Source: Candidatus Nomurabacteria bacterium (lineage in GTDB: Bacteria; Patescibacteriota; Patescibacteriia; HK-STAS-PATE-3). From it: DNA of 64,000 nt. The stretch is taken from positions 928,001 through 992,000 of the forward strand of contig CP060223.1 in assembly GCA_023898465.1 (NCBI GenBank), in the 5' to 3' direction. Shown piece by piece: positions 6,817 to 53,530 of this stretch. The stretch's first letter is position 1; every line of letters starts with the position of its first letter. A program made the position numbers and the translations under genes. The notes under the pieces were generated by a model. That model saw only the letters and a list, made by a program, of their open reading frames with translations. It did not search any database and was not told where the DNA came from.

Positions 6817-8422
6817 GCTCGCCTGATTGGTATACTGTCTGAAGTGCAGAAATCGCGCTTGGATCAGCCACACTATTCCGCGTATCAAATTCACCCCATA
6901 GTAAATAATCCACACTCTGCTCTCGCAACCATCTTTCAAGGGCAGTATTTCCACTTTGGCGCGCTACAATAAAACCATCTGATTTGTCATTGTAATGCAA
7001 GGTTTCAATCGGGTGTCCAAATACCACTGCCCGACCCGCCCAAGCTGGTATATAGAGATTGCCAATTTTCCCAGCTGCAAAAACTGCACGAGTATCGGTG
7101 TGTGTTTTCATCCAGTCACTCATATCTTGATAAGATTGATCGACGTAGAGGTGGTATGGCGGCTGACGAAAAGTATCATTCGTCCAAAGATGTACATCCA
7201 TGCCCACTAAAGCAATCGGCGAAAGACTAAACACTACTACGGCCAGCATTGGAGTGGCTACATAGCGAGACCAGCTTACTAATGGAAATCGCTTGAATAC
7301 TATACGAAGACCAATAAAAGCAAATAAAGCTAGGGGGAGCATCCAACCTTCAGTTAGGCGGCGACTAAAACTAATCGGCAAAAAGAAAATACATGCTTGC
7401 CCAAACAACCACGCAAGCGGCATTGCGTAGGTGCTTCGATCACGACCTAGTTGAAACAAAGCAAGAAGGGCCAGCGGAATAAGAGCGCCATAGCTAATAA
7501 GTGTGGTAAAAAAGAATGGCATAGTATTCACATTCTGAGCCGCTCGGCTATTCGCAATTGGGTCAAAAAGTATTATCCCAACTTGGTAGAAAATCATTGG
7601 CAGCGCTAGTCCTCCTACAAGAAGCGCCCCCCACAAAGCCCGTGCCGTTTTATCCCGCTGCCATAAAAAAGTGAAGAGTATAAAAAGCACAAAAACCCCT
7701 ATCACTGTTGGTAAGTGAAAGGGGTGAAAGCTCATAAGTAAAAAAAGCGACAGGCCGCTTTGCAAAAAATACTGTATTTGCTTTTGCTGCACCCCGAGGT
7801 AATACCAATGAAAAATGAGAATAAGTAATGAGGTGGCTAAAATAAAATGCGGGCTCTGATACATCGTTAAAAATGTATACGCTTCACTTACCCAGAGATC
7901 CATCGGCCAAATCGCCCACTCAATAAATCCAAAAATGTATTTAATAAAAGGATATGCAATTGCTCCAAATCCTGCAGCAAAAAGAAAAAGCAAAATAGCA
8001 AATTTACGCTCACGCCATGCCGGAAGAAAATTGCGTAAGAAAATTTCGCTCGACCATAGGAGTAAGGGGATGAGGAGGATTCGGGCTAAATGAAAACTTA
8101 CTAATGCGGAAAGGTGCAGCCACTTTGCCATATATCCAACAACAATCCAGATTGGACTGAAAATAAAAGCGTCATGCGGCTCAGCAGTAAACAAATCCCT
8201 AAGCATCACCTGTCCCTGTTTTACCTGTTCTATGTAGGAAAAATAGACCGGCAAATCACCTGGAGCCAGTGTATGTCCTCCGGTAAAAATCATCCCATCT
8301 GCCTGCATCATCCACGCGTAGAGGTAAGGGAACGTTGTGAGAATAACTAAAGCGAGGGCTATCCACCAAAACCAACGACGTGGCATTTTTTCAGCATCTG
8401 GGTGAAGAGAAAAAAACTGCAT
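6785..8422 (-). CDS. large polytopic membrane protein, probable GT-C-like glycosyltransferase
   Basis: 545 aa with ≥10 hydrophobic helices followed by a soluble C-terminal domain. It is in an operon with a Dpm1-like GT2 (4-nt overlap). Confidence 0.45.
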   Translation of the reverse strand: MQFFSLHPDAEKMPRRWFWWIALALVILTTFPYLYAWMMQADGMIFTGGHTLAPGDLPVYFSYIEQVKQGQVMLRDLFTAEPHDAFIFSPIWIVVGYMAKWLHLSALVSFHLARILLIPLLLWSSEIFLRNFLPAWRERKFAILLFLFAAGFGAIAYPFIKYIFGFIEWAIWPMDLWVSEAYTFLTMYQSPHFILATSLLILIFHWYYLGVQQKQIQYFLQSGLSLFLLMSFHPFHLPTVIGVFVLFILFTFLWQRDKTARALWGALLVGGLALPMIFYQVGIILFDPIANSRAAQNVNTMPFFFTTLISYGALIPLALLALFQLGRDRSTYAMPLAWLFGQACIFFLPISFSRRLTEGWMLPLALFAFIGLRIVFKRFPLVSWSRYVATPMLAVVVFSLSPIALVGMDVHLWTNDTFRQPPYHLYVDQSYQDMSDWMKTHTDTRAVFAAGKIGNLYIPAWAGRAVVFGHPIETLHYNDKSDGFIVARQSGNTALERWLREQSVDYLLWGEFDTRNSVADPSAISALQTVYQSGELTLYRLRPVE

Positions 8423-9120
8423 TACTTCTGAGAGCGAAACAATAATGCAAGAATCATTTGAGCGTATTCACGAGCAATCGTGAATGAAATTTTACTCTTG
8501 CCATATTGGCGATCCTGAAAAACATAGCCGATTTCTGTGGTCTGAAGTGGACGCGCTCGAACCAAAATCTCTACTAAAAGTTTATACCCGCGCGGACGTA
8601 AAGTATGTGCAATGCGTGTATACACATCTCGTCGTACGGCAAAATATCCGCTCATAGGATCACGCTCTCGAATACCGAGCATCACCTGAGCAATCCTAGT
8701 AGCAAACCAACTCATGGCTTGGCGTCGCAGAGGCCAACCTAACATACCGCCGCCACTAACAAAGCGTGAACCGATAGCCACGTCATTACCTAACTGCACC
8801 GCCCTAATCATCTGCGGAATAATTGCCGTATCATGCGAAAGATCGGCATCCATGCAAATAAAAATTTCTGATCTGGCCTCTTCCATACCAGCCATCAGTG
8901 CAGAAGCAAGGCCTAACTTACCTGTTCGCTCAATAACCCTGACTGGATAGTGAGCAGCCAGCGAACGAACAAGCTGAGCGGTCCCATCTGGCGAAGCATC
9001 GTCAACCACAATTATCTCGACAACCAGCTGCAAGCGGGCAATCTGTCGAAGGCACGCCTCAATGTTCTCCTTTTCATTATAGGTTGGCAGGATAATGCTA
9101 GCTTTTGGCAAGGCGCTCAT
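8422..9120 (-). CDS. polyprenol-phosphate sugar synthase (Dpm1/GtrB-like GT2 glycosyltransferase)
   Basis: SIILPTYNEKENI…VVDDASPDGT…DADLSH… are classic GT-A/GT2 DxD-type motifs of dolichol/polyprenol-P-mannose/glucose synthases. Confidence 0.8.
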   Translation of the reverse strand: MSALPKASIILPTYNEKENIEACLRQIARLQLVVEIIVVDDASPDGTAQLVRSLAAHYPVRVIERTGKLGLASALMAGMEEARSEIFICMDADLSHDTAIIPQMIRAVQLGNDVAIGSRFVSGGGMLGWPLRRQAMSWFATRIAQVMLGIRERDPMSGYFAVRRDVYTRIAHTLRPRGYKLLVEILVRARPLQTTEIGYVFQDRQYGKSKISFTIAREYAQMILALLFRSQK

Positions 9121-10406
9121 GAAGATACGGATTTGGACTGATCGCTCGACCCTGATGAAGTATAAGGCAGGGCTGCTAATAGGAAAACAAGCGCGAGGTA
9201 ACCCAGGTGTGTGTCATTAAAATACCGGGCAAAAAACCAAAAAACAAGCAGGGTAAATCCATAGTACCAGAAGATATTTTGCAGGGAAATGTCTAGTCGA
9301 CTCTTCCTCAATAAAAGGAGAAAACTCGGGATTCCAATGCAGAGAGAAAAAACCCAAAATGGGAAATGTCCGTAGGGATCAATAACATGAAAAGTTGCCA
9401 TCCACTGGGCAATACCTAAACCTGATGCTGGATAACTCAACTCAGCGCTGCCGTTTGCATACTTCCAAACGTCATCATAAAAAGCTCCTGGCGACCAGAG
9501 AAAGAAAAAACCCATAACCACAATAAGGAGAAGTAGCGAAGGAAATAATGGACGATATACTTGCCGCCAAGGACCTGGTTTCCGGCGCTGCCATACTGCT
9601 ACGAGGTAAAATGGCACAAAGAGCCAGGCGGACTGCTTCATCAGTAAAGCAAAAACCAGAGCAAATCCCGAGCTCGTGTATCTGCCTCGATAAAGCGCTA
9701 GGGCTGCGAGGAAGAGGAAAAGCAATACGGTGATGTCATTCAACCCAGCCACAATAAACTTCAACATAAATGGATTCAACGCAGTAAGGATAATTGCTAG
9801 ATCTCTCCAAGGAGCTTGCACGGTTTTTGCTAAGAGTAAGAGGAAGGCAATCCAAAAAAGTAAGTACAGCGCACGTACATCAAACCAACCAGTAAATCGC
9901 TCTAGGCTCCATTGCCACGGCGCCACGATAAGGAAAGAGCCTGGTAAATACACATAGTGCTCCCAGGCTGGATTGGGTCGCGTGCTATCAGAAAAACGAT
10001 CAGGGAACACACCAAAAGCTGTACCACGATAATCACTCGCATAAGGATTTTTACCCTGTAGGAGAAAATGACTCGCTTCCTCAGTCTGGATTGCACCATC
10101 GTGCACATATGCTTCTAGTGGACGATAAGGTCGTACCAGCATCTGCAAGGTACAGACGGTCACTAGGATGCCTATGCTTAAGATAAGGACGATCCTTGTT
10201 CGCATCTCATCTGCTGATGGGGCAAAGATAAGACTTAATCCATACGCAAACACCAGCAACAAAGGCAGGATGCCAAACCAGAAAAGTGGTGTGGGGGAAA
10301 AGAAATAACTAAAGGCCTGCTGACCTGAAAAAACCTCGGCCATCACATAAAGCACGAGGAGAAGAATGAGAACAAAAGTAAAACGTCGAATCGTGATTCC
10401 GTTCAT
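9117..10406 (-). CDS. polytopic membrane protein, probable GT-C-like glycosyltransferase
   Basis: 429 aa, ~10 TM helices, and it overlaps its neighbours by 4 nt (operon). Confidence 0.45.
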   Translation of the reverse strand: MNGITIRRFTFVLILLLVLYVMAEVFSGQQAFSYFFSPTPLFWFGILPLLLVFAYGLSLIFAPSADEMRTRIVLILSIGILVTVCTLQMLVRPYRPLEAYVHDGAIQTEEASHFLLQGKNPYASDYRGTAFGVFPDRFSDSTRPNPAWEHYVYLPGSFLIVAPWQWSLERFTGWFDVRALYLLFWIAFLLLLAKTVQAPWRDLAIILTALNPFMLKFIVAGLNDITVLLFLFLAALALYRGRYTSSGFALVFALLMKQSAWLFVPFYLVAVWQRRKPGPWRQVYRPLFPSLLLLIVVMGFFFLWSPGAFYDDVWKYANGSAELSYPASGLGIAQWMATFHVIDPYGHFPFWVFSLCIGIPSFLLLLRKSRLDISLQNIFWYYGFTLLVFWFFARYFNDTHLGYLALVFLLAALPYTSSGSSDQSKSVSS

Positions 10407-12041
10407 TTACGGAGCAACTGCATAAATCTTAGCCTCCTTGTCTTCGTAGACCAGTGAGACCCCCTCTGTACCATCTACTAAACGATCCATAGCTACATGA
10501 TCTTTAGTAACAACTACGTACGATGCATGAAAAGTATCACGTAGAGTGGTACTCACCGTGCTCGGATCTGACTTCCCGGTGGTTAAATCAACCCAAGCCC
10601 AATAGCGATCTTCATCGTGGGCATACAAAAAGGTTGGATCTAAACCAGCAATATAGCGATGTGATGGATCATAGTAAAAAAGGAGTGGAAACTCATCCCA
10701 GTCACTATGTACGACAATCTCGTCTGATGGGGCATTTGCTTTTAACCAAGTGCCAACACCAGACAGGGTTGAGGCATCTTGCCCACCCGCTAGGTCGCGT
10801 CGCACATTTCGCAAGTCACGTACACCCACGCCAACCACTCCTATAACAACATAGGCGAGGATTATCACTGCGACCGTTTTTGAAAGGACGCTATGACGCC
10901 ACCCGGCCACAACATCTCGCAAAAGCGCTTTACCTGCCTTACCAGAGAGTGCGTCGCTGATGGAAAAAGCTCCAAACAACATACCAATCGGCACATAGTA
11001 TTCAACGTAGCGCTTGGACTTCAGGGTAAGCAGGAAAAAGAAAATGGTTAGCAAGAAGAGGGTCCAGGAGCGGACAGACTGCTTTCGTAATTGCAGAGCC
11101 ATACCGAATATCCCTAACACCACCACAATAGAAACAAAGATGGTGGTAGGAATAAGCTCACCGATGTGATACGGATACCACTCTCCGCCTACGCCAATGC
11201 TATGTTGCGCATTAATAATGCCAATCTTAAAAAGCTGGTATTCGTAAAATCGAATGTTGTGCGGGAAGCTAGGATTAAGCAATAGACCTGCCAGCATCCC
11301 ACCCCCAACCGCCAAACCTATGGTGATGTAAAGACGCCAAGAAGCTTCATGGTGTCGCCAACGATCATACTGCTCATGCAGACGAGTAAGGAGAGAACGA
11401 GAATCACTCTGATGGAGTATCCAATAACGGACTAAGCCCACCAGGCAAAACACCGCTGTACAAACAAGCAGCAGGGAAAATCCGCCGTATACCCAAACAA
11501 AAATCCATGAGTACACAAAAGCCCACTTTGCTCGGAAGTGAAACACCAACCATAAACCAGCCAAAAGAAGTGTCACTCCCAGAACAGGCGCTTTTGGTAA
11601 ACCCATCCGAAACATGAATGGATTCACAAACAAAAGCAACAAGGTAAATACAAATGCCCATCGCACTTGGAAGGAACGAAGGAGGCCATAGAACATGCCA
11701 GCCATCACTGCAGTGAGTAAAATAGTGGCGACTTTTATCCCGACCAGTGGATCAGCTATAGAAACAAACGGGATGAGAATAACGTGATAAAGAAAATGCT
11801 GATTAATGTAATTCTCACTCAGGGATGTAAAAGGCAGCCAGGGAAACTGCGTAAAAAAACCTTTGTCAGCTACCAGGGTTGCCATCCGAGCATGATAAAA
11901 AGAATCAGGATCAGCAAAAGCATCATGCAATTGCAAATACGATGCAATGACCAGGGCAATCATCATGATAAGCAGACCGGTCAGAAAGGGCGTCCGGCAA
12001 AAGATACGATAGATTTTATACCACCAAGCCTCCTTTTCCAT
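10407..12041 (-). CDS. ArnT/PMT-family-like (GT-C) membrane glycosyltransferase
   Basis: 544 aa and multi-TM. The first extracytoplasmic loop, DAFADPDSFYHARMATLVADKGFF, resembles the DExRYAE…SGDW motif of ArnT/PMT GT39/GT83 enzymes. It has a soluble C-terminal domain. Confidence 0.5.
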   Translation of the reverse strand: MEKEAWWYKIYRIFCRTPFLTGLLIMMIALVIASYLQLHDAFADPDSFYHARMATLVADKGFFTQFPWLPFTSLSENYINQHFLYHVILIPFVSIADPLVGIKVATILLTAVMAGMFYGLLRSFQVRWAFVFTLLLLFVNPFMFRMGLPKAPVLGVTLLLAGLWLVFHFRAKWAFVYSWIFVWVYGGFSLLLVCTAVFCLVGLVRYWILHQSDSRSLLTRLHEQYDRWRHHEASWRLYITIGLAVGGGMLAGLLLNPSFPHNIRFYEYQLFKIGIINAQHSIGVGGEWYPYHIGELIPTTIFVSIVVVLGIFGMALQLRKQSVRSWTLFLLTIFFFLLTLKSKRYVEYYVPIGMLFGAFSISDALSGKAGKALLRDVVAGWRHSVLSKTVAVIILAYVVIGVVGVGVRDLRNVRRDLAGGQDASTLSGVGTWLKANAPSDEIVVHSDWDEFPLLFYYDPSHRYIAGLDPTFLYAHDEDRYWAWVDLTTGKSDPSTVSTTLRDTFHASYVVVTKDHVAMDRLVDGTEGVSLVYEDKEAKIYAVAP

Positions 12042-12094: not shown

Positions 12095-13147
12095 TTACTT
12101 CAGCTGCGCTTTGAAATAATCCACCCAAGGAATCGGCGATGGATCTATGTCATGCTCCATAGCGAGCCAGAAGCTGAGATAGCCACTAAAGGTGAGGTGT
12201 AAAACTATCTCTTCTAAGCGCGACTGAGCAGAAACCTTCACATCATCAACGCTAAAGTGCTGTCGTTGAAAAACCTTTTTACTAATACCGTAACGTTTTT
12301 CATTTCGAGCATGTAAAAACTTTGAACGAAGCATGAGTACATGCAGGGCTACTTTAGGATGCGCTAAGCCCTCCATGAGGTGGTGATTTAATCCTGGGAT
12401 AGGGAAATGTAGCGCAAAATGCTTACTGTTTTCATGGAAGCGATTTCGATAGGCCAGGGCTACATTTTCTAAGTGCTCGCTCCCCACAATAAGCGGGATG
12501 CGAGTGCACAACTTCTTGGCTAACTGCAGAGTAGTATTTCGTTGTTGAGGCGCCTGCACTGACCATTGTTTACCAGCTCGTCGAGCCTTCTCTATTGCGC
12601 GATGTAATTCTGGAGTAGATACACGTAGCTGCCCAGCAGCCGCAAGTAGCCCCATAATACCAAAAAGCATGTATCCAGTACCCATGCGAGGTTGCTGGGA
12701 TGGATTATACCGTGCATCAAAAATATAGGCGGGAATTTTCCATTGCGTAGCCAACTTGGCCAATGTCCCACCCGAGGAAATAACCATGAGTTTGGCGCCA
12801 CGTTGTCGAGCCTGACGAAGCGCGCTCACACTTTCTTCCGTACCGCCTGAATAACTTGAGGCGATTACGAGAGTATCAGGACCAACATAGGCTGGAATAT
12901 CGTACTGCTCTATTACCTCAAAAGTCGCTTTTGATGAGGGACGCAAAAAATCCGCTGCGATCCGAGCTGGAAATGCAGAGCCACCCATACCAGCCACCAC
13001 AATTTTTTTCACTGCACGATAACTAGCAGGCACAGCTATGCGTGAGGATTCGTCCCAGGCTTGTGCAATCTGATCAGGAAAAGCATCGAGCGAACTTAAC
13101 ATTTGTTGCTTATCAAGTCTTTGGACTTTTTGTTGTAGTGTCATCAT
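12095..13147 (-). CDS. bifunctional phosphoglucose/phosphomannose isomerase (SIS domain, archaeal-type PGI/PMI)
   Basis: VVAGMGGSAFPARIAADF…LVIASSYSGGTEE…MVISSGG are tandem SIS-domain motifs characteristic of PGI/PMI. Confidence 0.7.
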   Translation of the reverse strand: MMTLQQKVQRLDKQQMLSSLDAFPDQIAQAWDESSRIAVPASYRAVKKIVVAGMGGSAFPARIAADFLRPSSKATFEVIEQYDIPAYVGPDTLVIASSYSGGTEESVSALRQARQRGAKLMVISSGGTLAKLATQWKIPAYIFDARYNPSQQPRMGTGYMLFGIMGLLAAAGQLRVSTPELHRAIEKARRAGKQWSVQAPQQRNTTLQLAKKLCTRIPLIVGSEHLENVALAYRNRFHENSKHFALHFPIPGLNHHLMEGLAHPKVALHVLMLRSKFLHARNEKRYGISKKVFQRQHFSVDDVKVSAQSRLEEIVLHLTFSGYLSFWLAMEHDIDPSPIPWVDYFKAQLK

Positions 13148-13193
13148 GCATTAAATAGTATCAGTCTTTATGGGCAAAGAAAAGGAAAGTATA

Positions 13194-13222
13194 TTGACCG
13201 TTCGGCTTTTTTTTGGTATAGT
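13194..13222 (+). promoter_or_regulatory. sigma70-type promoter (TTGACC-17-TATAGT, with TGg extended -10) upstream of yebC
   Basis: ttgaccgttcggcttttttttggtatagt read directly. Confidence 0.55.
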
Positions 13223-13283
13223 AATAGCAAGGAACTCACGGGGAGATGGCGCTTTTAGTGATGAAGTCTCCGCTCATCAAGCT

Positions 13284-14006
13284 ATGTCCGGACATTCCAA
13301 GTGGTCACAAATTAAACGACAAAAAGGTGCGGCGGATGTAAAACGCAGCAGTCTTTTTACTAAACTCGCTAATAATATTGCGGTAGCTGCCAGAGATGGA
13401 AAAGATCCTGACATGAATTTTCGTCTCCGTTTAGCTATAGATCGTGCTCGAGCCGCCAATATGCCCAATGACAATATTGACCGAGCAGTGAAACGGGGTG
13501 CTGGTGAACTTGAAGGACAGATTATTGAGGAGATCACCTACGAAGCCTATGGCCCGGGTGGCGCTGCACTCGTTATACGCGTGCTCAGTGATAATAAGAA
13601 TCGAAGCGCAAGCGAGGTACGGACGACGCTCAATAAATACAATGGCAATTTGGGAGCAGCAGGAAGTGTGGTATGGAACTTCACGCTCAAAGGCGTCATC
13701 CGCGTCGAACAAGAGCATGTGCAGGAAAAAGATATCGACACCTTAAGCCTAGAACTCGTTGATGCAGGAGCGGAGGATATAGCTCAATCTGAAGAGGGAC
13801 TAACAATCTTCACCGCCGTGTCAGGTCTGGCTGAAGTACAAAGTGCACTTCACAAACAAAATATCGCAATTGCCGAAGCTGGACTCGAATATGTGCCAAA
13901 CACTACTGTAGCGCTAGATGAAAAAGCTTCTGGACAAATGCACACCTTAATTGACGCTCTTGAAGAGCTTGATGACGTTGACGCCGTCTTCACCAATGCC
14001 CAATAA
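13284..14006 (+). CDS. yebC: YebC/PmpR-family DNA-binding regulatory protein
   Basis: MSGHSKWSQIKRQKGAADVKRSSLFTKL… is the canonical YebC N-terminus. The track's upstream in-frame extension is unlikely. Confidence 0.85.
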   Translation: MSGHSKWSQIKRQKGAADVKRSSLFTKLANNIAVAARDGKDPDMNFRLRLAIDRARAANMPNDNIDRAVKRGAGELEGQIIEEITYEAYGPGGAALVIRVLSDNKNRSASEVRTTLNKYNGNLGAAGSVVWNFTLKGVIRVEQEHVQEKDIDTLSLELVDAGAEDIAQSEEGLTIFTAVSGLAEVQSALHKQNIAIAEAGLEYVPNTTVALDEKASGQMHTLIDALEELDDVDAVFTNAQ

Positions 14007-14487
14007 GTCACGTCGCATTCTCGGAATTGACCCTGGCTATGGACGACTCGGTTACGGAGTGCTGGAGGAAAAAGATCGGACGCTCCACTGTGAAAGCTAC
14101 GGCTGCATCGAAACACCGGCGAAAGAAGAAGCACCAGTCCGGCTAGCTAAGATTGCCCAAGAGCTACGCAGCATTTTACAACGCTATCAACCTGACCTCA
14201 TCGCAGTAGAAAAACTTTTCTTTGCAAAAAACACCAAGACAGCCCTCGGGGTAAGTGAAGCACGGGGAGTAGTACTCCTGATTGCACAAGAATACGGTGC
14301 AGAAATACAAGAATTTACACCAGTAGAAGTAAAACTAGCCTTAACCGGCTACGGACAAGCAAATAAAGATCAAGTACAGCAGATGGTAGAACGCCTCCTC
14401 AAAGTAGAGGAAAAAATCGCCAGCGATGATGCGGCAGACGCACTGGCAATCGCCATCTGTGCCGCCCACACAAAAATACCTACATGA
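13996..14487 (+). CDS. ruvC: crossover junction endodeoxyribonuclease RuvC
   Basis: ILGIDPGYGRLGYGVLE…LIAVEKLFFAKNTKTALGVSEARG… It overlaps the end of yebC by 11 nt, the classic yebC-ruvC linkage. Confidence 0.85.
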   Translation: MPNKSRRILGIDPGYGRLGYGVLEEKDRTLHCESYGCIETPAKEEAPVRLAKIAQELRSILQRYQPDLIAVEKLFFAKNTKTALGVSEARGVVLLIAQEYGAEIQEFTPVEVKLALTGYGQANKDQVQQMVERLLKVEEKIASDDAADALAIAICAAHTKIPT

Positions 14488-15539
14488 GTTCGATGAAACA
14501 ACAAAGTGAACAGCTCATTCATGCCACCGAGCGAATCTTTCGTGAATGTGTGCAGACAAATGGGGCTATCACTATCTCTCCTGATAGTAAACTGGTAATA
14601 CCTCATCACGCTGCTTTTGTTACTGTGGCAGCACCTTTTGTTGGTTTAGAGCTTGCTCCAGAATTTTTTGCTTGGGTTAAAAAAACTCTAGAGAATGAGG
14701 AGAATAACGGAGCCTTAAGTAATGCCTATGATTGGGAGGGAAAAGCAACCCATTCGCCAGCCCGATTTGCACCCGAACAAAACGGCGCCATGCTCTGGAG
14801 TATTGATGCCTATATTGAACGACATCCAGAGGAGCTGGCTCATATGAAGGAATTAGTAAGCCTGCTCGTGCAAGGAATTACTCAGCACTGGAAAAAAAAT
14901 GGATTTTCGCGTACTACTAATGAGGTATGGGGGGAACATCATCACATAGGAGCGCCTGAGATGAATCAGCGCTTTACATATGCCCTAGCCGCCTGTGCAC
15001 ATGGGCTTGAACGTGCGGCCGCTCGCTATAAGCAACGGCGATGGAAAGCTATTGCCGGGCAAATGCGTGAGCATATAAATAATGCCTGGGATGAAAACAA
15101 AAAGACTTTTCATCGCGCGCTTGGTAAACATAATGATACAAGCATTGATAGTCTAACTCTCGGACTTTGCTGGCCTTATCATATTTACGAGGCAAAAGAG
15201 AAACGCATGCAGGCAGCTGTCGAACGCATTGAAGAGGTGCTTATTGATGGTGGTGGAGTGCACCGCTTCCAATATGATTACCACGACAGCGAAGGGGATG
15301 CAGAAGATGGTGGTGGTATTTGGCCAGCTCTTAATTTTTGGATGAGCATCTATTTTGTTGAACAAGGCGATGAGGCAAAGGCGCGGGCTTACTTCCAATG
15401 GGTATTAGAACGCGTGCATGAAGAACTCCCAGAACAAATGTTTAAAGATTTTCGTATCGGCATTACTCCTTTTGCCTGGAGTCACGCACTCTTTCTCTTG
15501 GCTGCTCATAGTTTAAAACTTCTCCCAAATGAAGCGTAA
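14484..15539 (+). CDS. GH15-family (glucoamylase/glucodextranase-like) (alpha/alpha)6 glycoside hydrolase
   Basis: The composition (…NGAMLWSIDAY…, …GGIWPALNFWMSIYF…) resembles the GH15 catalytic toroid. The family is inferred by eye. Confidence 0.5.
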   Translation: MSSMKQQSEQLIHATERIFRECVQTNGAITISPDSKLVIPHHAAFVTVAAPFVGLELAPEFFAWVKKTLENEENNGALSNAYDWEGKATHSPARFAPEQNGAMLWSIDAYIERHPEELAHMKELVSLLVQGITQHWKKNGFSRTTNEVWGEHHHIGAPEMNQRFTYALAACAHGLERAAARYKQRRWKAIAGQMREHINNAWDENKKTFHRALGKHNDTSIDSLTLGLCWPYHIYEAKEKRMQAAVERIEEVLIDGGGVHRFQYDYHDSEGDAEDGGGIWPALNFWMSIYFVEQGDEAKARAYFQWVLERVHEELPEQMFKDFRIGITPFAWSHALFLLAAHSLKLLPNEA

Positions 15540-17004
15540 ACTTCGCATCATGAACGTAGCTGCAGAAGTGGCTCCCTATGCCAAAACCGGGGGCCTGGCT
15601 GACGTAGTACATGCGCTACCAAAAGAATTAGTACACCAGGGCCATAGCGTCAGTATTATCATGCCCTGCTACGGCTTCATGAAAAAGCAAAATATTCCCA
15701 TGACTGAGGTGGATCGCTTCCGCATTAGTGTGGGGAGTAAAAACTTTGGAGCGACTATCTATCAAACTGAATTTTCACCAGGCTTAACAATCTACTTTGT
15801 TGCCAATCACGAACTCTTTGGTCGTTCGCGACTCTATGGCTACCCAAACGACAACACTCGCTTCATGTTCTTTTGTAAGGCCGTTGTACGCTTTATTAAA
15901 GAAATGAATAACCGGCCTCATGTCGTTCACTGCCATGATTGGCACACCGGGTTAATACCAAACTACCTCAAGCAAAAATTTAATCACGACCCATCTCTCC
16001 GCTCAATCGCAACACTCTACACGATTCACAACCTACCTTTCCAATTCGGATCAGACTGGTGGAAGGTGCCGCCAAAGCAGCAAGATGACGGACGCGGCGT
16101 ACCCCCTGAAACACCGACGAAGAAGTTGAATCGAGTAAACTTTGCCAAACGCGCCTTACTCAACGCCGACATCATCAACACGGTAAGTGAGCGCTATGCT
16201 GAAGAAATCCTCACCCCAGAATTTGGCCAAGACCTTGATGGAATACTCCGACGTCGAGAAGAAGATGTCTACGGCATTGTAAATGGCATTGACTACACCG
16301 TATATAATCCGGTGTATGATAAAAACATCCCGGTAAACTACGACTGGAACCAGCTCGATAAAAAACAGCTCAACAAAAACGCCTTGCAGCGTAAGGTTGG
16401 CCTAGAGCAAAAAGCTGATATCCCGCTCATCGGGGTAGTGAATCGCTTAAGTGAGCAAAAGGGATTTAACCTGCTACGTGAAATTGCCTACGTGCTCGTG
16501 AAGCTGCCTCTGCAGCTCGTTATTGTGGGAAGTGGACATCCGGATTATGTGCGCTTCTTTAAGCGCTTAGCAAAAAAATATCCTAAGCGGATTGGCTTTT
16601 ACTCTCCTTTTACCGAGGAGCTCGCTTCGCTTACCTATGCTGGCTCTGACATGTTCCTCATGCCCTCGCGCTATGAGCCATGTGGAATTTCCCAAATGAT
16701 CAGTTTACGATACGGCTCTATTCCGATTGTCCGAGAAACAGGCGGGCTCTCTGACACTATTACCAATTTCAATCCAAAGACGCAAAAAGGTATTGGCTTT
16801 GTATTTTCTGGATATACCAAGGAAGATTTTCTCATCGCTATTGTCCGAGCCCTCGAAACCTATCGCTATGCACAGGTCTGGGAACACCTCACCTGGCGAG
16901 CTATGAAAACGTCATACTCATGGGAGGTGCCAGCAAAAAAATATGCGCAGTTATATCGCTTAGCTTATCGACATAAACGGGCACGAAAGAAGGGGACAAC
17001 ATAA
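15529..17004 (+). CDS. glgA: glycogen/starch synthase (GT5, GlgA-like), paralog 1
   Basis: AKTGGLADVVHALPKEL… contains the KTGGL motif, with HCHDWHTGL… and a GT-B C-terminal half. Confidence 0.85.
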   Translation: MKRKLRIMNVAAEVAPYAKTGGLADVVHALPKELVHQGHSVSIIMPCYGFMKKQNIPMTEVDRFRISVGSKNFGATIYQTEFSPGLTIYFVANHELFGRSRLYGYPNDNTRFMFFCKAVVRFIKEMNNRPHVVHCHDWHTGLIPNYLKQKFNHDPSLRSIATLYTIHNLPFQFGSDWWKVPPKQQDDGRGVPPETPTKKLNRVNFAKRALLNADIINTVSERYAEEILTPEFGQDLDGILRRREEDVYGIVNGIDYTVYNPVYDKNIPVNYDWNQLDKKQLNKNALQRKVGLEQKADIPLIGVVNRLSEQKGFNLLREIAYVLVKLPLQLVIVGSGHPDYVRFFKRLAKKYPKRIGFYSPFTEELASLTYAGSDMFLMPSRYEPCGISQMISLRYGSIPIVRETGGLSDTITNFNPKTQKGIGFVFSGYTKEDFLIAIVRALETYRYAQVWEHLTWRAMKTSYSWEVPAKKYAQLYRLAYRHKRARKKGTT

Positions 17005-18248
17005 TGCGCTGGGCCGCCCTCCTACATATTTATCAACCTCCGCACTGGGATGCTCGCGTCATTGCTAAAGTAGTGAGTGAAAGCTATCGACCTTTAGTGG
17101 ATATTTTAACGCGAAATCCCAAGATTAAGATTACGCTAAACATCAACGCCTCGTTGACTGAGCAACTTGCTCGACATGGCTACCTCGATGTTATTGATGG
17201 ATTACGCAGCTTGGCTGAACGAGGACAAATTGAATTTACTGGCAGCGCAAAATACCACCCGATTTTACCCCTCCTGCCAGCTGATGAGGTACGTCGTCAA
17301 ATCCGCCTCAACACTGAAACAAACCGAGCTCTCTTTGGTGATATTTATCGCCCACGAGGATTTTTCCCGCCTGAGATGGCAGTCGATCTCGACCTCATCC
17401 GCATCTTAGTGGAAATGGGATTTGAATGGGTAGCAGTTGACGAATTAGCCGGTGAGAAAAAACTTGGCGATCTTCCTTTAAATAAAAAATATTTAGTTGA
17501 GCCTTTTGATATCTCTCTGGTTCTACGCAATCGTTTCATGAGCGACTATCTGGCCTTTGCGGCTCCAATTGATAAGCCAGGTGAATTTTTTGCTGAGGTA
17601 GAAAAAGAAAAACGCTCAAAGGAAATTCTCATCACTGCAATGGATGGAGAAAACCTTGGCCACCACCGTCCAGGCACTGAACGACTATGGGAGGAGTTAG
17701 TAACAAATCCTTCAGTCGAAATGGTCACCTTCACTGAAGCGCTGGAAGGTTTTAGCACGCAGGAAAAACTCATGGTGCAGGAAAGCAGTTGGTCGACTCG
17801 AGCAATTGATCGAGTCCGCAATGCACCTTATCCGCTTTGGCAGCATCCGGAAAATCAACTTCATCAACTACAGTGGTCGCTCACCACGCTCATCATCGAA
17901 GCGATTAACCAAGCAGAGAAGCGAAGTGACCACACCATTGAACAAGCTCGGATTGCTTTAGACGAGGCGCTGTCTTCTGATCAATACTGGTGGGCCTCAG
18001 CCACGCCCTGGTGGAGTGTGGAGATTATTAATGAAGGAGCCGAGCGACTTGGTAAAGTGTTAGAAGCGCTCAGTGAAGTGCCGCCCGCTACGCAGAAAGA
18101 AGCGCGACAGCTCATTCGCTCAATTCGAGAAACTTCACGTCGCTGGCAGGACAAAGGAGTTGCTTCTCAGCGTATGGCTGAATACAACAAAGAAACAAAG
18201 CAAGTACATTACATGGCTGGACAACGCATTGACGGTTCTGCCAAGTGA
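17004..18248 (+). CDS. GH57-family alpha-glucan-active enzyme, paralog 1
   Basis: The five GH57 conserved regions are recognisable: HIYQPP, GQIEFTGSAKYHPILP, GFFPPEMAVD, EWVAVDE and SDQYWWAS. Confidence 0.65.
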   Translation: MRWAALLHIYQPPHWDARVIAKVVSESYRPLVDILTRNPKIKITLNINASLTEQLARHGYLDVIDGLRSLAERGQIEFTGSAKYHPILPLLPADEVRRQIRLNTETNRALFGDIYRPRGFFPPEMAVDLDLIRILVEMGFEWVAVDELAGEKKLGDLPLNKKYLVEPFDISLVLRNRFMSDYLAFAAPIDKPGEFFAEVEKEKRSKEILITAMDGENLGHHRPGTERLWEELVTNPSVEMVTFTEALEGFSTQEKLMVQESSWSTRAIDRVRNAPYPLWQHPENQLHQLQWSLTTLIIEAINQAEKRSDHTIEQARIALDEALSSDQYWWASATPWWSVEIINEGAERLGKVLEALSEVPPATQKEARQLIRSIRETSRRWQDKGVASQRMAEYNKETKQVHYMAGQRIDGSAK

Positions 18249-18304
18249 TTGTACGGTAGGTGCGCATAGAACTTTCATTAGACAATTAATTCCTTAGAAA
18301 AAAC

Positions 18305-19675
18305 ATGTATTGGGCAAATTTCCTGCATATTTATCAACCACCAACCCAAAAACCATATTGGGTGAAGCGAGTCACTGAAGAGTCGTATCGAAAAATCGTT
18401 GCTGAATTAAAGCGCGCTCCGGGTGCTAAACTCACTCTGAACATTAGCGCGGTGCTTGTTGAATTGCTGGATAAGAATGGATGTGGAGATGTTATTGATG
18501 ACATTCGTCTCTTGCTCGAGCGTGGACAAATTGAATTAACCAGCTCAGCAAAGTTTCATCCATTACTACCAAAGATTCCCAAGGATGAAGTTATTCGACA
18601 AATCCAACTGAACGACGAAACGCATCGTAAATATTTTGGTGAACTCTACAAGCCGAAGGGATTTTTCCCACCTGAGATGGCCTTCTCTACCGATGTGGCA
18701 AAGATCGTAAAAGAGCTGGGCTATGAATGGATCATTGTTGATGAATTATCCTTCTCTCGCGAAATCGGCAATATTGATTACAGCAAGCGCTACACGGTTG
18801 AGGGTCTGGATGATTTTTCCATCTACTTCCGTGAACGGCGCATGAGCTACAAAATCCTTTCCGGACAATTAGGATCCGGCTCGCTTCTTATTCAGAGCCT
18901 GGGTGATCGATTAAAGAAAAATGAATACCTCCTAACTGCAATGGATGGAGAAACTTTCGGCCACCACCGTCCAGGTATGGAGCACCTCCTTTTTGAGATT
19001 TACGAATCAAAGGAACTCGAAACTATCCTTATCTCGGATATCCCAAAACACTTCCCAGAGTCCACGCCGATTGATCCTTTGCCATCCACTTGGGCGCTGA
19101 TGGAAAAAGACCTTGAAAAGAATGCGCCGTTTTCTCGCTGGCTTGATCCAGGTAACACAATTCATGAACGACAATGGGAATTAACCAACCTGGCGATTAA
19201 GGCGGTACATGCAAGCGATCAAAGCGATCCAAAATTTCCTGAGGTGCGGACAGCGCTTGATCGAGCAATTCACTCAGATCAATACTGGTGGGCCTCGGCA
19301 AAACCATGGTGGAGTATGGAAATGATTGAGGCAGGCGCTAAGGAGCTGTCTGATGTGGTATTAAACGCGCCAGGCTCAAGTGAAGAGGAGAAGGAACGAG
19401 CGAAACAGCTCTACCAAGAAATTATCTATACCGGCTTTGACTGGCAGCGATCTGGTTTAGTGGAAAAGCTTTCCCAGCAAGAGGATGAGGAAATACGACA
19501 GCGAACTGATGAAGCTATTCCTGAATTACCTGCTGAAGAAATTGATAAAATTATTGCGAACTTGCGCAAAGATATCGATGATGTGGTGAAGCGAGAAGAA
19601 TACGAGCGAGCAGCTCAATTGCGCAATCGCATTAAAGAACTCGAGCAATATCGAGACAAAAAAAGTAAAGAATAA
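18305..19675 (+). CDS. GH57-family enzyme, paralog 2, with C-terminal UVR-like motif
   Basis: HIYQPP, GQIELTSSAKFHPLLP, GFFPPEMAFS, EWIIVDE and SDQYWWAS. The C-terminal EEYERAAQLRNRIKELEQ matches the UVR (UvrB/UvrC) helix motif. Confidence 0.65.
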   Translation: MYWANFLHIYQPPTQKPYWVKRVTEESYRKIVAELKRAPGAKLTLNISAVLVELLDKNGCGDVIDDIRLLLERGQIELTSSAKFHPLLPKIPKDEVIRQIQLNDETHRKYFGELYKPKGFFPPEMAFSTDVAKIVKELGYEWIIVDELSFSREIGNIDYSKRYTVEGLDDFSIYFRERRMSYKILSGQLGSGSLLIQSLGDRLKKNEYLLTAMDGETFGHHRPGMEHLLFEIYESKELETILISDIPKHFPESTPIDPLPSTWALMEKDLEKNAPFSRWLDPGNTIHERQWELTNLAIKAVHASDQSDPKFPEVRTALDRAIHSDQYWWASAKPWWSMEMIEAGAKELSDVVLNAPGSSEEEKERAKQLYQEIIYTGFDWQRSGLVEKLSQQEDEEIRQRTDEAIPELPAEEIDKIIANLRKDIDDVVKREEYERAAQLRNRIKELEQYRDKKSKE

Positions 19676-19699
19676 GCAGGTTCTTATATAGAATACGTG

Positions 19700-19728
19700 C
19701 AGCGCGTCCAAATGGGCGCGCTGTTTGT
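19700..19728 (+). terminator. rho-independent terminator after GH57 paralog 2
   Basis: Stem cagcgcg/cgcgctg followed by TTTGT. Confidence 0.5.
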
Positions 19729-19735
19729 AAAAAAA

Positions 19736-19744
19736 TGCTACAAT
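19736..19744 (+). promoter_or_regulatory. extended -10 element TGCTACAAT, 9 nt before ATG 19754 (leaderless-type promoter)
   Basis: Read directly. The identical motif recurs at 55280. Confidence 0.4.
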
Positions 19745-19753
19745 AAGTGAAGC

Positions 19754-20677
19754 ATGTCACGACTTTCCGCTGAAAAAGTACACTCACTACTCAAACAAAA
19801 AGCTGTTTTTAAGGCTGAGATTACCCATGTGGTACTTGAGAAACACAAAGCCTTTTCTCATTCCAGTCGACTTGCTCGCTATATCGTGTCTCTGGCAAAT
19901 GGGCAAACAAAATATATCCGAGCAAATGTTTGGCCAATCTCAGCTTTTCGTATTGCAGAAGCGCTCAGCGCACAGCAAAGCTTAAAAGCGCCTCAACCGA
20001 TATACTACGACAAGAGTAGTCACACTATTCTTTACGAGGAACTAAATGGTGACACCCTGCGCAGCGTGCCGCTCACCGCAAAAGCATGGAAGCCCATTAT
20101 TCCTAAGGTTGCTCAACTCCTAGCCGCTTTTCATCAAACGCCACTACCTAAGGGCTTAGCACCTGAGACGCAAAGCGCCGCAAAGAAGCGAAGAAAAAAC
20201 CTTGTCCAAGGAATACAAAAGGCTGATAAGGGATATGGCGCACTAGCGAAAGTTGCGTGTAGCCAGCTCGAGTCACAGATTGCTCGCCAGGCCGGAAAAG
20301 TAAAGGCACTCACCCATGGCGATTTCCAGGCAAGTAATATACTCATCGCAAAAAAGAATCTCTCGCTTATTGACTTCACGCTGAGTCGACCAAATCATCC
20401 AGCCAGCGACCTTGGTCTCTGGTTAGTACATTGGCAGGCTATGACGCGCGATCACCTTAGTCACACACAAAGGGAAGAGTTGGGCTATCTCTTTTTACAG
20501 TACTACTTCTCAGCCGTGCCAAAGGCCTGGCACGCACCTATCCGAGCAATGCTTCCAGTCTATGTGAGCGAGGCCACGCTCGAGGTCGCCGCTACCACCT
20601 TGCTTATGTACGGCGCCCACGATACCAATGTTCGCGCATTACTTGATGAATTATTTTCTAGTTTGCACTATGTCTGA
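19754..20677 (+). CDS. APH/choline-kinase-like phosphotransferase (protein-kinase-like fold); possible sugar (malto)kinase
   Basis: HGDFQASNILIAKKNLSLIDFT…ASDLG contains the Brenner HGDxxxxN motif and a DxxxxxxD-like Mg site. Confidence 0.5.
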   Translation: MSRLSAEKVHSLLKQKAVFKAEITHVVLEKHKAFSHSSRLARYIVSLANGQTKYIRANVWPISAFRIAEALSAQQSLKAPQPIYYDKSSHTILYEELNGDTLRSVPLTAKAWKPIIPKVAQLLAAFHQTPLPKGLAPETQSAAKKRRKNLVQGIQKADKGYGALAKVACSQLESQIARQAGKVKALTHGDFQASNILIAKKNLSLIDFTLSRPNHPASDLGLWLVHWQAMTRDHLSHTQREELGYLFLQYYFSAVPKAWHAPIRAMLPVYVSEATLEVAATTLLMYGAHDTNVRALLDELFSSLHYV

Positions 20678-22130
20678 ACGCATCCTCTTTATCTCAGCCG
20701 AAGTAACACCGCTCGCAAAAGTCGGGGGACTGGCCGATGTGGTTGGCGCCCTACCTCCAGCTCTACGAAAACTGGGAGCTGACGCTCGTATCCTCATGCC
20801 AAAGTATGGCGTGATTGATGAAGAAAAATATCCCATGGAAATACGTGGGCAAGGCATCCCAGTCCAGATTGGACAAGGTACGGTGTATGTCGATCTATGG
20901 GAAACAAAATTACCTAATACTGACACTCCGGTCTATCTCATTGGTAATGACAAATTTTTCGGAGGAAGCCGTATCTATTTTGATGCTTCAGCTTTTGCCA
21001 GCCAGTTTGTGGAATTCGAGCGATTCCTTTTCTTTGCCATGTCGAGCGTGGCCGTGCTTGATGCACTCGAATGGAAGCCTACGATTATTCACTGCCATGA
21101 TTGGCACACCGGATTAATTCCCGCTTTACTCAAGCAGGAGAAGCCTCGCATCGCGACAGTCTTCACCATTCATAACCTAGGCAACCAAGGTAAATGGAAC
21201 ACGCCAGATATTTTCCGCTTCCTAGGTTTGCAAGCGCAGGATCGCGCATCATTTAGCCTGACCGACTCCCAGGGTAATTTTAATTGTTTGCTCCAAGGTG
21301 TAGTGAATGCAGATGCGGTAAATACGGTTAGTCCGAGCTATGCCAAAGAGATTCTCACTGCCGAGTATGGAGAGGGTCTCGAAAAAACACTTCAGCAACA
21401 AGGTGACCGCCTAATGGGAATACTGAATGGGATTGATGTTGAACGCTTTGACCCGAGTCGTAATCCTGACCTACCTGAACATTTCAGTGCGGAGAAGCTT
21501 GAGGGAAAAATACGAGCTAAGGAAGCGCTTCAAAAAGAATGCAATCTCGAAGTAAATAAAGAGGTCCCTCTTTTCAGCTTCATCGGTCGACTCACTGATC
21601 AAAAAGGTATGGACCTGATCGGACAATCAGTTGAACATATTTTGAAGCTTGGTGGTCAGCTGGTTCTACTCGGCAGTGGAATGGATGAATTTGAAAAAAT
21701 TGCCCAGGAAGCGGCGGCAAAATATCCCGGGAAGGTGTACACAAAAATTGGCTTTGACGCAGCACTGGCCCAACGGATATACGCCGGAAGTGACTTTTTC
21801 CTCATGCCCTCAAAATATGAGCCATGCGGACTGGGGCAAATAATTGCCATGCGCTATGGCACTATCCCAGTAGTCCGAGCAACTGGAGGCTTGAAAGATA
21901 CCGTGCCAGACTATACCATGAATAGTGCAGAGGGTAGGGGGTTTGCTTTTACGCCATATGCGGCCAGCGATCTCCAAGATGCTATTACCCGAGCGCATCA
22001 GCTTTATCAAAACCAAACCGAGTTTATTCAACTGCAAAAACGCATCATGGGTATTGACCTCTCCTGGAAGCAATCAGCTCGCCAATACCTTGATCTCTAT
22101 ACCCGCGCCCGACAAGAACAACGACCATGA
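20670..22130 (+). CDS. glgA: glycogen/starch synthase (GT5, GlgA-like), paralog 2
   Basis: MSERILFISAEVTPLAKVGGLADVVGALP…HCHDWHTGL… ATG 20670 overlaps the stop of the kinase gene. Confidence 0.85.
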   Translation: MSERILFISAEVTPLAKVGGLADVVGALPPALRKLGADARILMPKYGVIDEEKYPMEIRGQGIPVQIGQGTVYVDLWETKLPNTDTPVYLIGNDKFFGGSRIYFDASAFASQFVEFERFLFFAMSSVAVLDALEWKPTIIHCHDWHTGLIPALLKQEKPRIATVFTIHNLGNQGKWNTPDIFRFLGLQAQDRASFSLTDSQGNFNCLLQGVVNADAVNTVSPSYAKEILTAEYGEGLEKTLQQQGDRLMGILNGIDVERFDPSRNPDLPEHFSAEKLEGKIRAKEALQKECNLEVNKEVPLFSFIGRLTDQKGMDLIGQSVEHILKLGGQLVLLGSGMDEFEKIAQEAAAKYPGKVYTKIGFDAALAQRIYAGSDFFLMPSKYEPCGLGQIIAMRYGTIPVVRATGGLKDTVPDYTMNSAEGRGFAFTPYAASDLQDAITRAHQLYQNQTEFIQLQKRIMGIDLSWKQSARQYLDLYTRARQEQRP

Positions 22131-23128
22131 AACAAAGTGAAATCCGCCAAGATTACGTTCATAACCGAGTAGTCATTATCTCGCCAGGTCGCTCAAAGCG
22201 CCCGCATGATTTTCATCCTACTGGCACGCCGCACCAGGTTCATCGAGCTGAGTGTCCGTTTTGTCCTGAGCAAGTAGATAAGGTGAAGGCGGTAGCGAGC
22301 TACAAAGGTCAAAAGCCTTGGAGTATTAAGGTTATCAAAAACATCTTCCCGGCGGTTCGGAAAGATAATCCTAAGGCCTACGGTGATCAAGAGGTTGTTA
22401 TTGAAACGCCTGAACATGATTTAGAGCTATCAGAACTTTCTGTCGAGCATATTGAGCAACTTTTGAAAGTATATGCTGACCGTACTTGGGCGCAATCAAA
22501 AGACAAGAAGATTCAATACATCATGATCTTCAAAAACAACGGGGGTCGAGCTGGCGCTTCTATTGACCATGCTCACTCTCAAGTGTTTGCCACAAACTTC
22601 CTCCCACCGCACATTGTCGATAAGCTTCGCCGCGCTGAGGAATATCTTATCCGCTATGGAACTTGTTACTACTGTGACTTGATTGCGAAAGAGGGTAAGG
22701 GACCGCGCATGATCGAGAATAATGAATTTGTTTTTGTGGAAGCTCCCTATGCTTCATCGTATAATTACGAAGCTTGGATCTTGCCAAAGCGCCACCTCGA
22801 TAATATTACGAATCTCAATAAGGCGGAACGTCTGGCTTTTGCAAGGGCGCTAAAAAATATACTTGGCAAGTTAAATAGCATTGGCCTCCCATATAATTAC
22901 TACCTGCACCAGGTGGTTCGCTATGGAAATGAACACCTTTACTTCCGTGTAGCACCGCGTCGTGATGTATGGGCAGGAGTGGAATTAGGATCGCGACTTA
23001 TTGTGAATACCGTACCACCGGAAGACGCCGCCGCCTTTTACCGCGGTGACGATGAGAAAAAGAAAGGTAAGAAAAAGTCCGCAACGAAAAAGCTTTCTAA
23101 TAAACGAAAGTCCGCCAAGCGCAAATAG
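22127..23128 (+). CDS. GalT-like HIT-superfamily nucleotidyltransferase/phosphorylase with Lys-rich C-terminal tail
   Basis: CPFCPEQ (Zn site), ASIDHAHSQVFA (HxHxQ nucleotidyl-His motif). The C-terminal 30 aa are KKKGKKKSATKKLSNKRKSAKRK. Confidence 0.65.
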   Translation: MKQSEIRQDYVHNRVVIISPGRSKRPHDFHPTGTPHQVHRAECPFCPEQVDKVKAVASYKGQKPWSIKVIKNIFPAVRKDNPKAYGDQEVVIETPEHDLELSELSVEHIEQLLKVYADRTWAQSKDKKIQYIMIFKNNGGRAGASIDHAHSQVFATNFLPPHIVDKLRRAEEYLIRYGTCYYCDLIAKEGKGPRMIENNEFVFVEAPYASSYNYEAWILPKRHLDNITNLNKAERLAFARALKNILGKLNSIGLPYNYYLHQVVRYGNEHLYFRVAPRRDVWAGVELGSRLIVNTVPPEDAAAFYRGDDEKKKGKKKSATKKLSNKRKSAKRK

Positions 23129-51655: not shown

Positions 51656-51661
51656 AAATAC

Positions 51662-51690: not shown

Positions 51691-51702
51691 TCCCTTACAA
51701 AA

Positions 51703-53529: not shown

Positions 53530-53530
53530 T

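Follow-up and report, generated by a model that had tools for sequence, protein, structure and literature searches.

How might a bacterium build an alpha-glucan when the genes beside its glycogen synthases are not the classical glycogen genes? This question is raised by a 64,000-nt stretch of a Candidatus Nomurabacteria genome (assembly GCA_023898465.1, contig CP060223.1, positions 928,001 to 992,000 of the forward strand; hereafter the window), in which an earlier note, made from the letters alone, had described a non-canonical alpha-glucan gene cluster of seven consecutive + strand open reading frames (ORFs) at 14484-23128. All seven ORFs are found at these coordinates in the ORF list of the window. 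They encode, in order, a GH15-like protein, a glycogen synthase (GlgA1), two GH57 proteins (GH57a and GH57b), an APH-fold kinase (APH-B), a second synthase (GlgA2) and a GalT-like protein of the HIT superfamily. The cluster is genuine, is conserved in relatives and forms a non-canonical alpha-glucan unit. The organism belongs to the Patescibacteria, or Candidate Phyla Radiation (CPR), which account for a large share of bacterial diversity, have genomes of ~1 Mb and probably have very little energy and biosynthetic capacity to spare. As a composite reading, which we consider somewhat probable, we propose that the cluster is a lineage-wide CPR operon for an intracellular glycogen-like alpha-1,4-glucan, made independently of GlgC and appended to an oriC-proximal yebC-ruvC pair.

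Organization and conservation of the gene cluster

The seven genes are closely packed. ruvC runs into the GH15-like gene, its stop overlapping that gene's start; the GH15-like and GlgA1 genes overlap by 11 nt, and the GlgA1 and GH57a genes by 1 nt; gaps of 56 nt and 78 nt lie on either side of the GH57b gene. The probable start of GlgA2, an ATG at 20670, overlaps the kinase stop (ATGTCTGA), and the GlgA2 stop in turn overlaps the start of the GalT-like gene. The cluster genes are translationally coupled, the GalT-like gene with GlgA2 included. In relatives the order is YebC-RuvC-(GH15)-GlgA-GH57-GH57UVR-(second kinase)-kinase-GlgA-GalT, with YebC always ahead of RuvC and the glucan genes, and it is kept at 31-70% protein identity in many independent contigs. 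Because the gene ends are tight or overlapping and the order recurs in so many independent contigs, the cluster is more than a chance arrangement, and we regard a conserved CPR alpha-glucan operon as nearly certain.

Homologs of the kinase are few (8 matches, 31-94% identity), and every one that lies on a long contig shows the same gene order. The GalT-like family is far larger, with >1,100 matches in Patescibacteria, among them Kerfeld-, Buchanan- and Kuenenbacteria. One member on a contig of 1.03 Mb and another from a Kerfeldbacteria genome sit in the same operon, with a more divergent kinase-like gene in the kinase slot; downstream of the operon come TyrRS, a ROK kinase, PBP, DnaN and DnaA. 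We also scanned metagenomes with a GalT-like alignment, which confirmed 495 relatives; 80 loci were kept and annotated with hidden Markov models built from the relatives' loci. In ~28 of the 34 metagenome loci that have at least 9 kb of sequence upstream of the GalT-like gene, glgA and GH57 genes lie between ruvC and that gene, and ~22 of these ~28 also carry a kinase-like ORF. Reduced forms occur as well (GlgA1-GH57-GlgA2-GalT and GH15-GlgA1-GH57-GalT), and reduced forms such as GlgA1-GH57-GalT would fit a core of three functions: activation, polymerisation and processing.

As the earlier note had claimed, the window has no glgC, GH13 glgB or glgP: none turned up when its remaining sizeable ORFs were scanned with Pfam, or in phmmer searches with E. 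coli GlgC, GlgB, GlgP and GlgX. Across the 64-kb window the Pfam scans of sizeable ORFs gave no GlgC, GH13, GT35, PGM, GalK or GalE. What they did find is of a housekeeping or envelope kind overall: a solute-binding protein, a T4SS-pilin-like protein, DUF2079, GT2, TyrRS, PBP, DnaN, DnaA and YidC, and further a type II secretion system (T2SS) ATPase, ValRS, TsaD, PolA, HolA and UvrB. When the phmmer search was run on the window together with ~1.2 Mb of related loci, the E. coli GlgC, GlgB, GlgX and GlgP queries returned no homolog, apart from one weak nucleotidyltransferase match; GlgA gave 106 matches in the same search. No GlgE, TreS or other GH13 protein was seen nearby, either in the Pfam scans of the window or with the GlgB and GlgX queries against the 1.2 Mb, TreS and GlgE not being among the queries.

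Two glycogen synthases and two GH57 enzymes

GlgA1 (15529..17004, + strand, 491 aa) and GlgA2 (20628..22130, + strand, a 500-aa ORF) belong to GT5: they match TIGR02095 over their full length with 517.9 and 526.5 bits, respectively, against a cutoff of 328.45. The two share 37% identity. Both keep K15, G17, G18, D137, H161, R300, K305 and E377 (E. coli numbering) as well as the KxGGL loop, which reads KTGGL in GlgA1 and KVGGL in GlgA2; the position of E. coli Y355 is Phe and so still aromatic. The catalytic residues are kept in nearly all of 30 GlgA1 and 39 GlgA2 relatives. By family model, and with catalytic residues complete, both proteins classify as ADP-glucose-type GT5 synthases.

Two related loci have other genes in the place of GlgA2: a polysaccharide pyruvyl transferase in one (L095, 6092-7114), and an ATP-grasp (RimK-like) protein together with a GT4 glycosyltransferase in the other (L070, 5273-7153). 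Such replacements hint at lineage-specific modification of the glucan.

GH57a (17004..18248, + strand, 414 aa) and GH57b (18305..19675, + strand, 456 aa) are GH57 members by PF03065 (136.1 and 128.8 bits, cutoff 21.2; E 1e-37 to 1e-39) and are 42% identical. GH57b additionally ends in a UVR motif, a helical hairpin (PF02151, 27.4 bits). The five conserved GH57 regions are present in both (HIYQP, GQIE, PPEMA, MDGE and SDQYWW), and the nucleophile Glu and acid/base Asp are invariant in 29 GH57a and 22 GH57b relatives; this dyad aligns with what we take to be E123 and D214 of the Thermococcus litoralis enzyme. By sequence, the closest solved protein for both is the T. litoralis 4-alpha-glucanotransferase (E 1e-13 to 1e-14), and branching enzymes align locally only. 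The earlier note had pointed out that GH57 members can act as branching enzymes or 4-alpha-glucanotransferases; both proteins fall outside the branching-enzyme equivalog families NF041566 and NF041133 (25-29 bits against cutoffs of 920-1000). In a structural comparison GH57a came closest to the Aquifex amylopullulanase (34.7), followed by T. maritima AmyC (33.4), the Staphylothermus amylopullulanase (32.2), the T. thermophilus branching enzyme (30.1) and the T. litoralis 4-alpha-glucanotransferase (28.6). AmyC was later reported to be a branching enzyme. By their motifs GH57a and GH57b are catalytically intact GH57 enzymes, and the fold of GH57a confirms the family; branching, amylopullulanase-like and transferase activity are all candidates for it.

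In comparison with the thermophile GH57 enzymes (the Aquifex and Staphylothermus amylopullulanases, AmyC, the branching enzymes of T. thermophilus and T. kodakarensis, and the T. litoralis enzyme), the operon proteins share the five regions and the Glu/Asp dyad. They are, however, 18-23% identical to these, shorter at ~410 aa and devoid of the C-terminal beta-sandwich; one paralog carries the UVR motif, and in some relatives a kinase is fused to the GH57 domain. Inspected by eye in the translations and alignments, with no predictor used, none of the seven proteins has a hydrophobic, signal-peptide-like N-terminus. In the current NCBI annotation GH57a (H6760_04725) is a "hypothetical protein" and the GalT-like protein a "DUF4931 domain-containing protein".

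The GalT-like protein resembles an ADP-glucose phosphorylase

The last gene of the cluster (22127..23128, + strand) encodes a 333-aa protein that belongs to the GalT branch of the HIT superfamily (PF01087, 57.4 bits against a cutoff of 22.1; DUF4931_N is matched as well). The earlier note had raised the possibility of an ADP-glucose phosphorylase, and the comparison with solved proteins bears it out as far as relatedness goes. The best match is Arabidopsis At5g18200 (PDB 1Z84/2H39), aligned at full length with 31% identity (145.8 bits, E 1e-41). E. coli GalT gives 82.7 bits (E 2e-22, 26% identity) with its C-terminal third unaligned, and the P. aerophilum and human GalTs give 113 and 55 bits. 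At5g18200 is an ADP-glucose phosphorylase (PMC6329318; bioRxiv 10.64898/2026.09.13.751320). The class I GalT models are not reached: TIGR00209 (galT_1) scores 99.4 bits, just under its cutoff of 102.1, and NF008724 scores 118 against 448.

The motif H148-x-H150-x-Q152 is intact and invariant in the family. The CPFC/His zinc site is also kept, although some family members lack the zinc ligands. Position Asp78 of E. coli GalT is Leu or Ile both in the plant phosphorylase and in the Patescibacteria family; we take Asp78 to be part of the uridine pocket, which makes the exchange a lead and not a test. The protein thus shares with At5g18200 the HxHxQ nucleophile motif, the Cys-x-x-Cys zinc site and the hydrophobic residue at Asp78. 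It differs from the plant enzyme in being bacterial, in its DUF4931 annotation, in having no plant insertions and in its genetic coupling to glycogen synthases. As far as sequence goes, a GalT-like enzyme that supplies or consumes NDP-glucose (NDP, nucleoside diphosphate) for the GT5 synthases is supported. Residues 307-333 (window 23047-23128) form a Lys/Arg-rich low-complexity tail (GDDEKKKGKKKSATKKLSNKRKSAKRK) that most family members lack.

The galT_1 score so near its cutoff would also fit a mainly catabolic or salvage function, in which the GH57 and GH15 proteins degrade host or stored alpha-glucan, the kinase and a Leloir-type GalT process the resulting hexoses, and the synthases are merely co-regulated. 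The amylopullulanase as nearest structural relative of GH57a, the PGI and ROK neighbours, and the persistence of the GalT-like gene in loci without glgA all point in the same direction. We nevertheless consider this explanation unlikely. The lack of signal-peptide-like N-termini, judged by eye, argues against an extracellular glucan as the target; the operon conserves two intact biosynthetic GT5 enzymes; the window holds no galK or galE; and the closer relative of the GalT-like protein is the ADP-glucose phosphorylase, with true GalTs further off. Set against the Leloir and GNB/LNB logic, in which an anomeric kinase (GalK or NahK) works with a GalT-family transferase, the operon lacks an epimerase and has neither a galactose nor a hexosamine context; a class II GalT architecture is likewise missing, and the product would go to GT5 glucan synthases.

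A Patescibacteria-specific kinase family linked to GH57

APH-B (19754..20677, + strand, 307 aa) is an APH-fold kinase by PF01636 (53 bits) and keeps the catalytic loop HGDFQASN and the metal-binding IDF. An invariant Arg56 in the third predicted N-lobe strand (residues 52-59) is a candidate for the position of the usual ATP-binding Lys. The earlier note had compared this protein to the maltokinases Mak/Pep2, and this kinship failed: the TIGR02457 score, which comes from ~40 residues round the catalytic loop, is 15 bits (cutoff 375), and the top 60 PDB profile matches do not include Mak. Membership in the maltokinase family was rejected on these profile scores and the PDB ranking, the rank by fold being non-specific. 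A resistance-type enzyme was rejected as well. The model NF033068 of the aminoglycoside-resistance APH(3') gives 24.5 bits against a cutoff of 205, and all members whose neighbourhood was examined lie in these operons.

Among PDB sequences the family profile matches the ACAD11 kinase domain, APH(2'')-Id, and the corramycin and macrolide phosphotransferases. The structural comparison ranks Rv3168 (22.8), homoserine kinase II (22.5), LxmK (21.1), glucosamine kinase (20.5), maltokinase (20.2), MTR kinase (20.0) and NahK (18.1), so that the structural neighbours are small-molecule kinases. The family is small: an exhaustive profile search of 1.84 billion representatives found 45 proteins at E<=1e-30. 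By these comparisons APH-B classifies as a Patescibacteria-specific kinase family, neither maltokinase nor resistance APH, and we know of no characterised member.

Two kinds of gene fusion are informative. Among the top 25 representatives, 16 are two-domain proteins of 654-684 aa with an APH-B-type kinase as the C-terminal half. The partner, APH-A, is fused to APH-B in L034 (1235-3400), L035 (6260-8386), L036 (6442-8529) and P0251-P0266 (654-722 aa) and is a separate, adjacent gene in L005 and L007; the window has APH-B alone. In three independent metagenomes, moreover, single ORFs of 726-744 aa with an ATG start join a GH57 domain to the kinase (L093, 1881-4109; L094, 1-2178; L095, 3851-6082). 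Pfam finds in them PF03065 followed by a C-terminal PF01636, with HGDCHPEN/IIDY intact. Through these fusions the kinase family is linked with GH57 chemistry, and they speak against an unrelated gene that is next door by accident.

The GH57-kinase fusion resembles TreS-Pep2, a fusion of a GH13 enzyme with a maltokinase, and a maltokinase-like function therefore stays possible even though family membership fails. This would allow a GlgE-like maltose-1-phosphate route, in which the kinase acts as a maltokinase on maltose made by GH57 and a GH57 enzyme transfers maltosyl units from maltose-1-phosphate to the glucan. APH-fold sugar kinases being mostly anomeric also suits such a route. Against it stand the lack of any specific sequence relation to Mak (TIGR02457; PDB top 60) and a kinase that, at 307 aa, is too short for the N-terminal cap domain carried by the ~435-aa maltokinases. 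There is also no GlgE, TreS or GH13 in the window or related loci, by the window Pfam scans and the GlgB and GlgX queries, and we know of no GH57 maltosyltransferase. Two NDP-sugar-dependent GT5 enzymes and a nucleotidyl-transfer enzyme would moreover be left unexplained, and we rate the route as very unlikely. The mycobacterial GlgE pathway is thus similar in placing an APH-fold kinase among alpha-glucan genes and in the GH-kinase fusion seen in some relatives. It differs in that the operon kinase is shorter and outside the maltokinase family, its partner is GH57 and not GH13, and no GlgE or TreS is near.

Slighter still is the chance of a regulatory role, in which the protein, as a protein kinase or in some variants as a pseudokinase, would control the synthases or the GH57 enzymes. 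Its profile is weakly similar to Bud32, RIO and Ser/Thr kinases round the catalytic loop, a variant that we call K3 has an altered loop, and GH57b bears the UVR motif, a protein-interaction motif. The family, however, evolves fast and is lost in some loci, and the GH57 fusion fits substrate channelling equally well. Least probable of all is that the one or two kinases phosphorylate the polymer itself, in a logic like that of the plant GWD/PWD pair, which would control the solubility and mobilisation of a poorly branched, starch-like glucan that the two synthases make with no classical branching enzyme: kinases that are often paired or fused as a pair, the fusion to a glucan-active GH57 domain, and the lack of a recognised branching-enzyme equivalog and of a nearby GlgP would suit it, but the operon shows no glucan phosphatase, the kinase's structural neighbours act on small molecules, the window has one kinase and some loci none, GH57a is structurally about as near to branching enzymes as to hydrolases, and we know of no precedent for an APH-fold glucan kinase.

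A proposed GlgC-independent route to a storage glucan

The GlgC-independent operon that we favour would work as follows. In the place of GlgC, the HIT enzyme would convert glucose-1-phosphate and ADP (or another NDP) reversibly to NDP-glucose and phosphate, and so supply both synthases, with a saving of one phosphoanhydride over the GlgC route. From sequence comparison, such a replacement of GlgC is a serious possibility, at or slightly short of an even chance. One or both GH57 enzymes would take care of branching, trimming, chain processing or mobilisation, replacing GH13 GlgB and GlgX, MalQ and GT35 enzymes. The kinase, alone or paired, would phosphorylate a carbohydrate handled by GH57 (glucose, maltose or a maltooligosaccharide), most plausibly at the anomeric carbon. 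Phosphorylation at C1 is plausible because most APH-fold sugar kinases, Mak, NahK and MTR kinase among them, are anomeric; any specific substrate that one might name is doubtful. The sugar phosphate would return to the HIT enzyme or enter glycolysis, to which PGI upstream and, in many relatives, ROK downstream would link the block. In relatives with an intact GH15, this enzyme would free glucose during mobilisation.

In its most specific form, the proposal is an undescribed ATP-sparing route to a storage glucan: the lineage-specific APH-fold kinase, in physical association with GH57 enzymes, would make a sugar-1-phosphate from glucose or maltose, the HIT phosphorylase would turn it into ADP-glucose without GlgC, and GH57 would replace GlgB, for one ATP per glucose. 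We consider it improbable that all of these parts hold together.

E. coli glgBXCAP is the obvious comparison. Shared with it are the GT5 ADP-glucose-type synthases with all catalytic residues and a cytoplasmic, operon-encoded alpha-glucan metabolism. The Patescibacteria operon, in contrast, has no GlgC, GH13 GlgB, GlgX or GT35 GlgP in or near it. Its synthases are two paralogs, and in place of the missing enzymes stand GH57 enzymes, an APH-fold kinase and a HIT enzyme of the GalT family. Glycogen metabolism as such is known; here it would run with an apparently non-canonical set of enzymes. A search of the literature found no description of the operon, of a DUF4931 function or of the kinase family; what it did return were general remarks that starch or glycogen genes occur in some CPR genomes (for example PMC5220378 and PMC9868632).

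Several observations weigh against the operon as we read it. Fold searches do not tell branching from hydrolytic GH57 enzymes, nor sugar kinases from other small-molecule kinases. The TIGR00209 score of the GalT-like protein lies near the cutoff, and 31% identity to the plant phosphorylase leaves nucleotide and acceptor specificity unfixed. The absence of glgC, galU, pgm, glgB and glgP covers the window, 64 kb of a 1,082,586-bp contig, and +/-10 kb neighbourhoods. Some loci (L054, L072 and L085) do without the kinase, and in the K3 variant the catalytic loop reads H[QYF]EPY..H in place of HGDxxxxN, with IDW kept. K3 is very divergent and occupies the operon slot in L027 (7540-8532), L028 (7584-8561) and six further loci; it may be a pseudokinase or have altered chemistry. 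Finally, four loci (L063, L066, L106 and L108) read YebC-RuvC-GalT with no glgA or GH57 gene between. In these the HIT enzyme may have a role independent of glucan synthesis, or the glucan genes may have been lost recently.

A nine-gene block near the replication origin that is kept in many CPR lineages likely matters for their physiology. Glucose is activated for glycogen in two known ways, by GlgC and by the GlgE/maltose-1-phosphate pathway. If the HIT enzyme does make ADP-glucose from ADP and glucose-1-phosphate, this would be a third, and the ADP-glucose phosphorylase fold and the proteins annotated as DUF4931 would gain a role in physiology. The GH57 fusions, for their part, point to new carbohydrate-kinase chemistry.

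A decaying GH15-like gene and the flanking regions

The first gene of the cluster (14484..15539, + strand) encodes a GH15-like (alpha/alpha)6 protein of 351 aa. The earlier description as glucoamylase-like stands for the fold and the base motif, LPEQ, which is kept; it does not stand for the rest, with no match to PF00723 or any other Pfam family and the catalytic motifs lost. Similarity to GH15 is weak: 66 bits with TIGR01577, a GH15-type NCBIfam model, and E 1e-5 over residues 72-349 with the best PDB match, the single-domain GH15 isomaltose glucohydrolase of Kribbella (5Z3A). The ORF is intact but has a deletion of 8-11 aa relative to its relatives. Where these have VW[PI]RDA, the window protein has VIPHHA, so that Arg-Asp (RD) has become HH, and their D[VLI]WE[DE] has become EVWGEH, with Glu changed to Gly; 9 of 9 relatives keep the original form at both sites. 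The first Glu of this motif we take, by the numbering of the PDB chain, to correspond to the catalytic acid in the Kribbella enzyme; in the noted shorter form, WE[DE] has become WGE. The loss is not a sequencing error, because an identical copy is found on an independent assembly (L001). The window protein is, by its motifs, probably inactive. The GH15 gene is missing from some relatives, and we conclude that it is an accessory gene, decaying in this lineage.

Upstream of the cluster, and on the same strand, lie the two genes to which it is appended. The first gene of the block encodes a YebC/PmpR-family regulator (13170..14006, +; NF001030, 290.8 bits against a cutoff of 243), and the second the Holliday-junction resolvase RuvC (13951..14487, +; NF000711, 203.5 bits against 163). 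YebC models align from residue ~39 of the ORF onwards, and the probable true start is at ~13284. Just upstream of it, at 13194..13222 (+), is a sigma-70-like promoter match (TTGACC, 17 nt, TATAGT, with TG). This is a consensus match only, and matches in the promoter and terminator scan were not enriched over shuffled sequences. An Rfam scan of the window gave no match.

Divergent from the cluster is a gene for a bifunctional phosphoglucose/phosphomannose isomerase, PGI/PMI (12095..13147, -; SIS and bact-PGI_C domains by Pfam and NCBIfam), which has the same place in L001, L007, L027, L028 and many metagenome loci. Adjoining it, a mostly - strand block at 4810-12041 holds genes of an envelope-glycan type: a DUF2079 membrane protein, a GT2, a 429-aa protein whose relatives weakly match MptA/GT87, and two proteins of ~545 aa without a Pfam match. 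This block may be a glycosylation system dependent on polyprenyl-phosphate sugars.

On the other side, dnaN and dnaA (32459-35191, -) lie ~10 kb downstream of the cluster, and the replication-origin neighbourhood of the operon is shared with L005, L008 and L028. In the window, as in L005 and L008, no ROK gene separates TyrRS from PBP. APH-B as a stand-in for the missing ROK glucokinase was considered and rejected, given that other loci have ROK together with each of the kinase types. A 243-aa ORF at 40919-41650 (-) is protein-kinase-like, with Pkinase, Kdo/WaaP and RIO1 matches and the size of a Bud32/RIO protein; it sits between ValRS and the T2SS ATPase, ~4 kb from tsaD. Further on, large probable surface proteins with lamin-tail, PKD, OB-fold, beta-helix and FG-GAP/fn3 domains are encoded at 49457-55024 (+).

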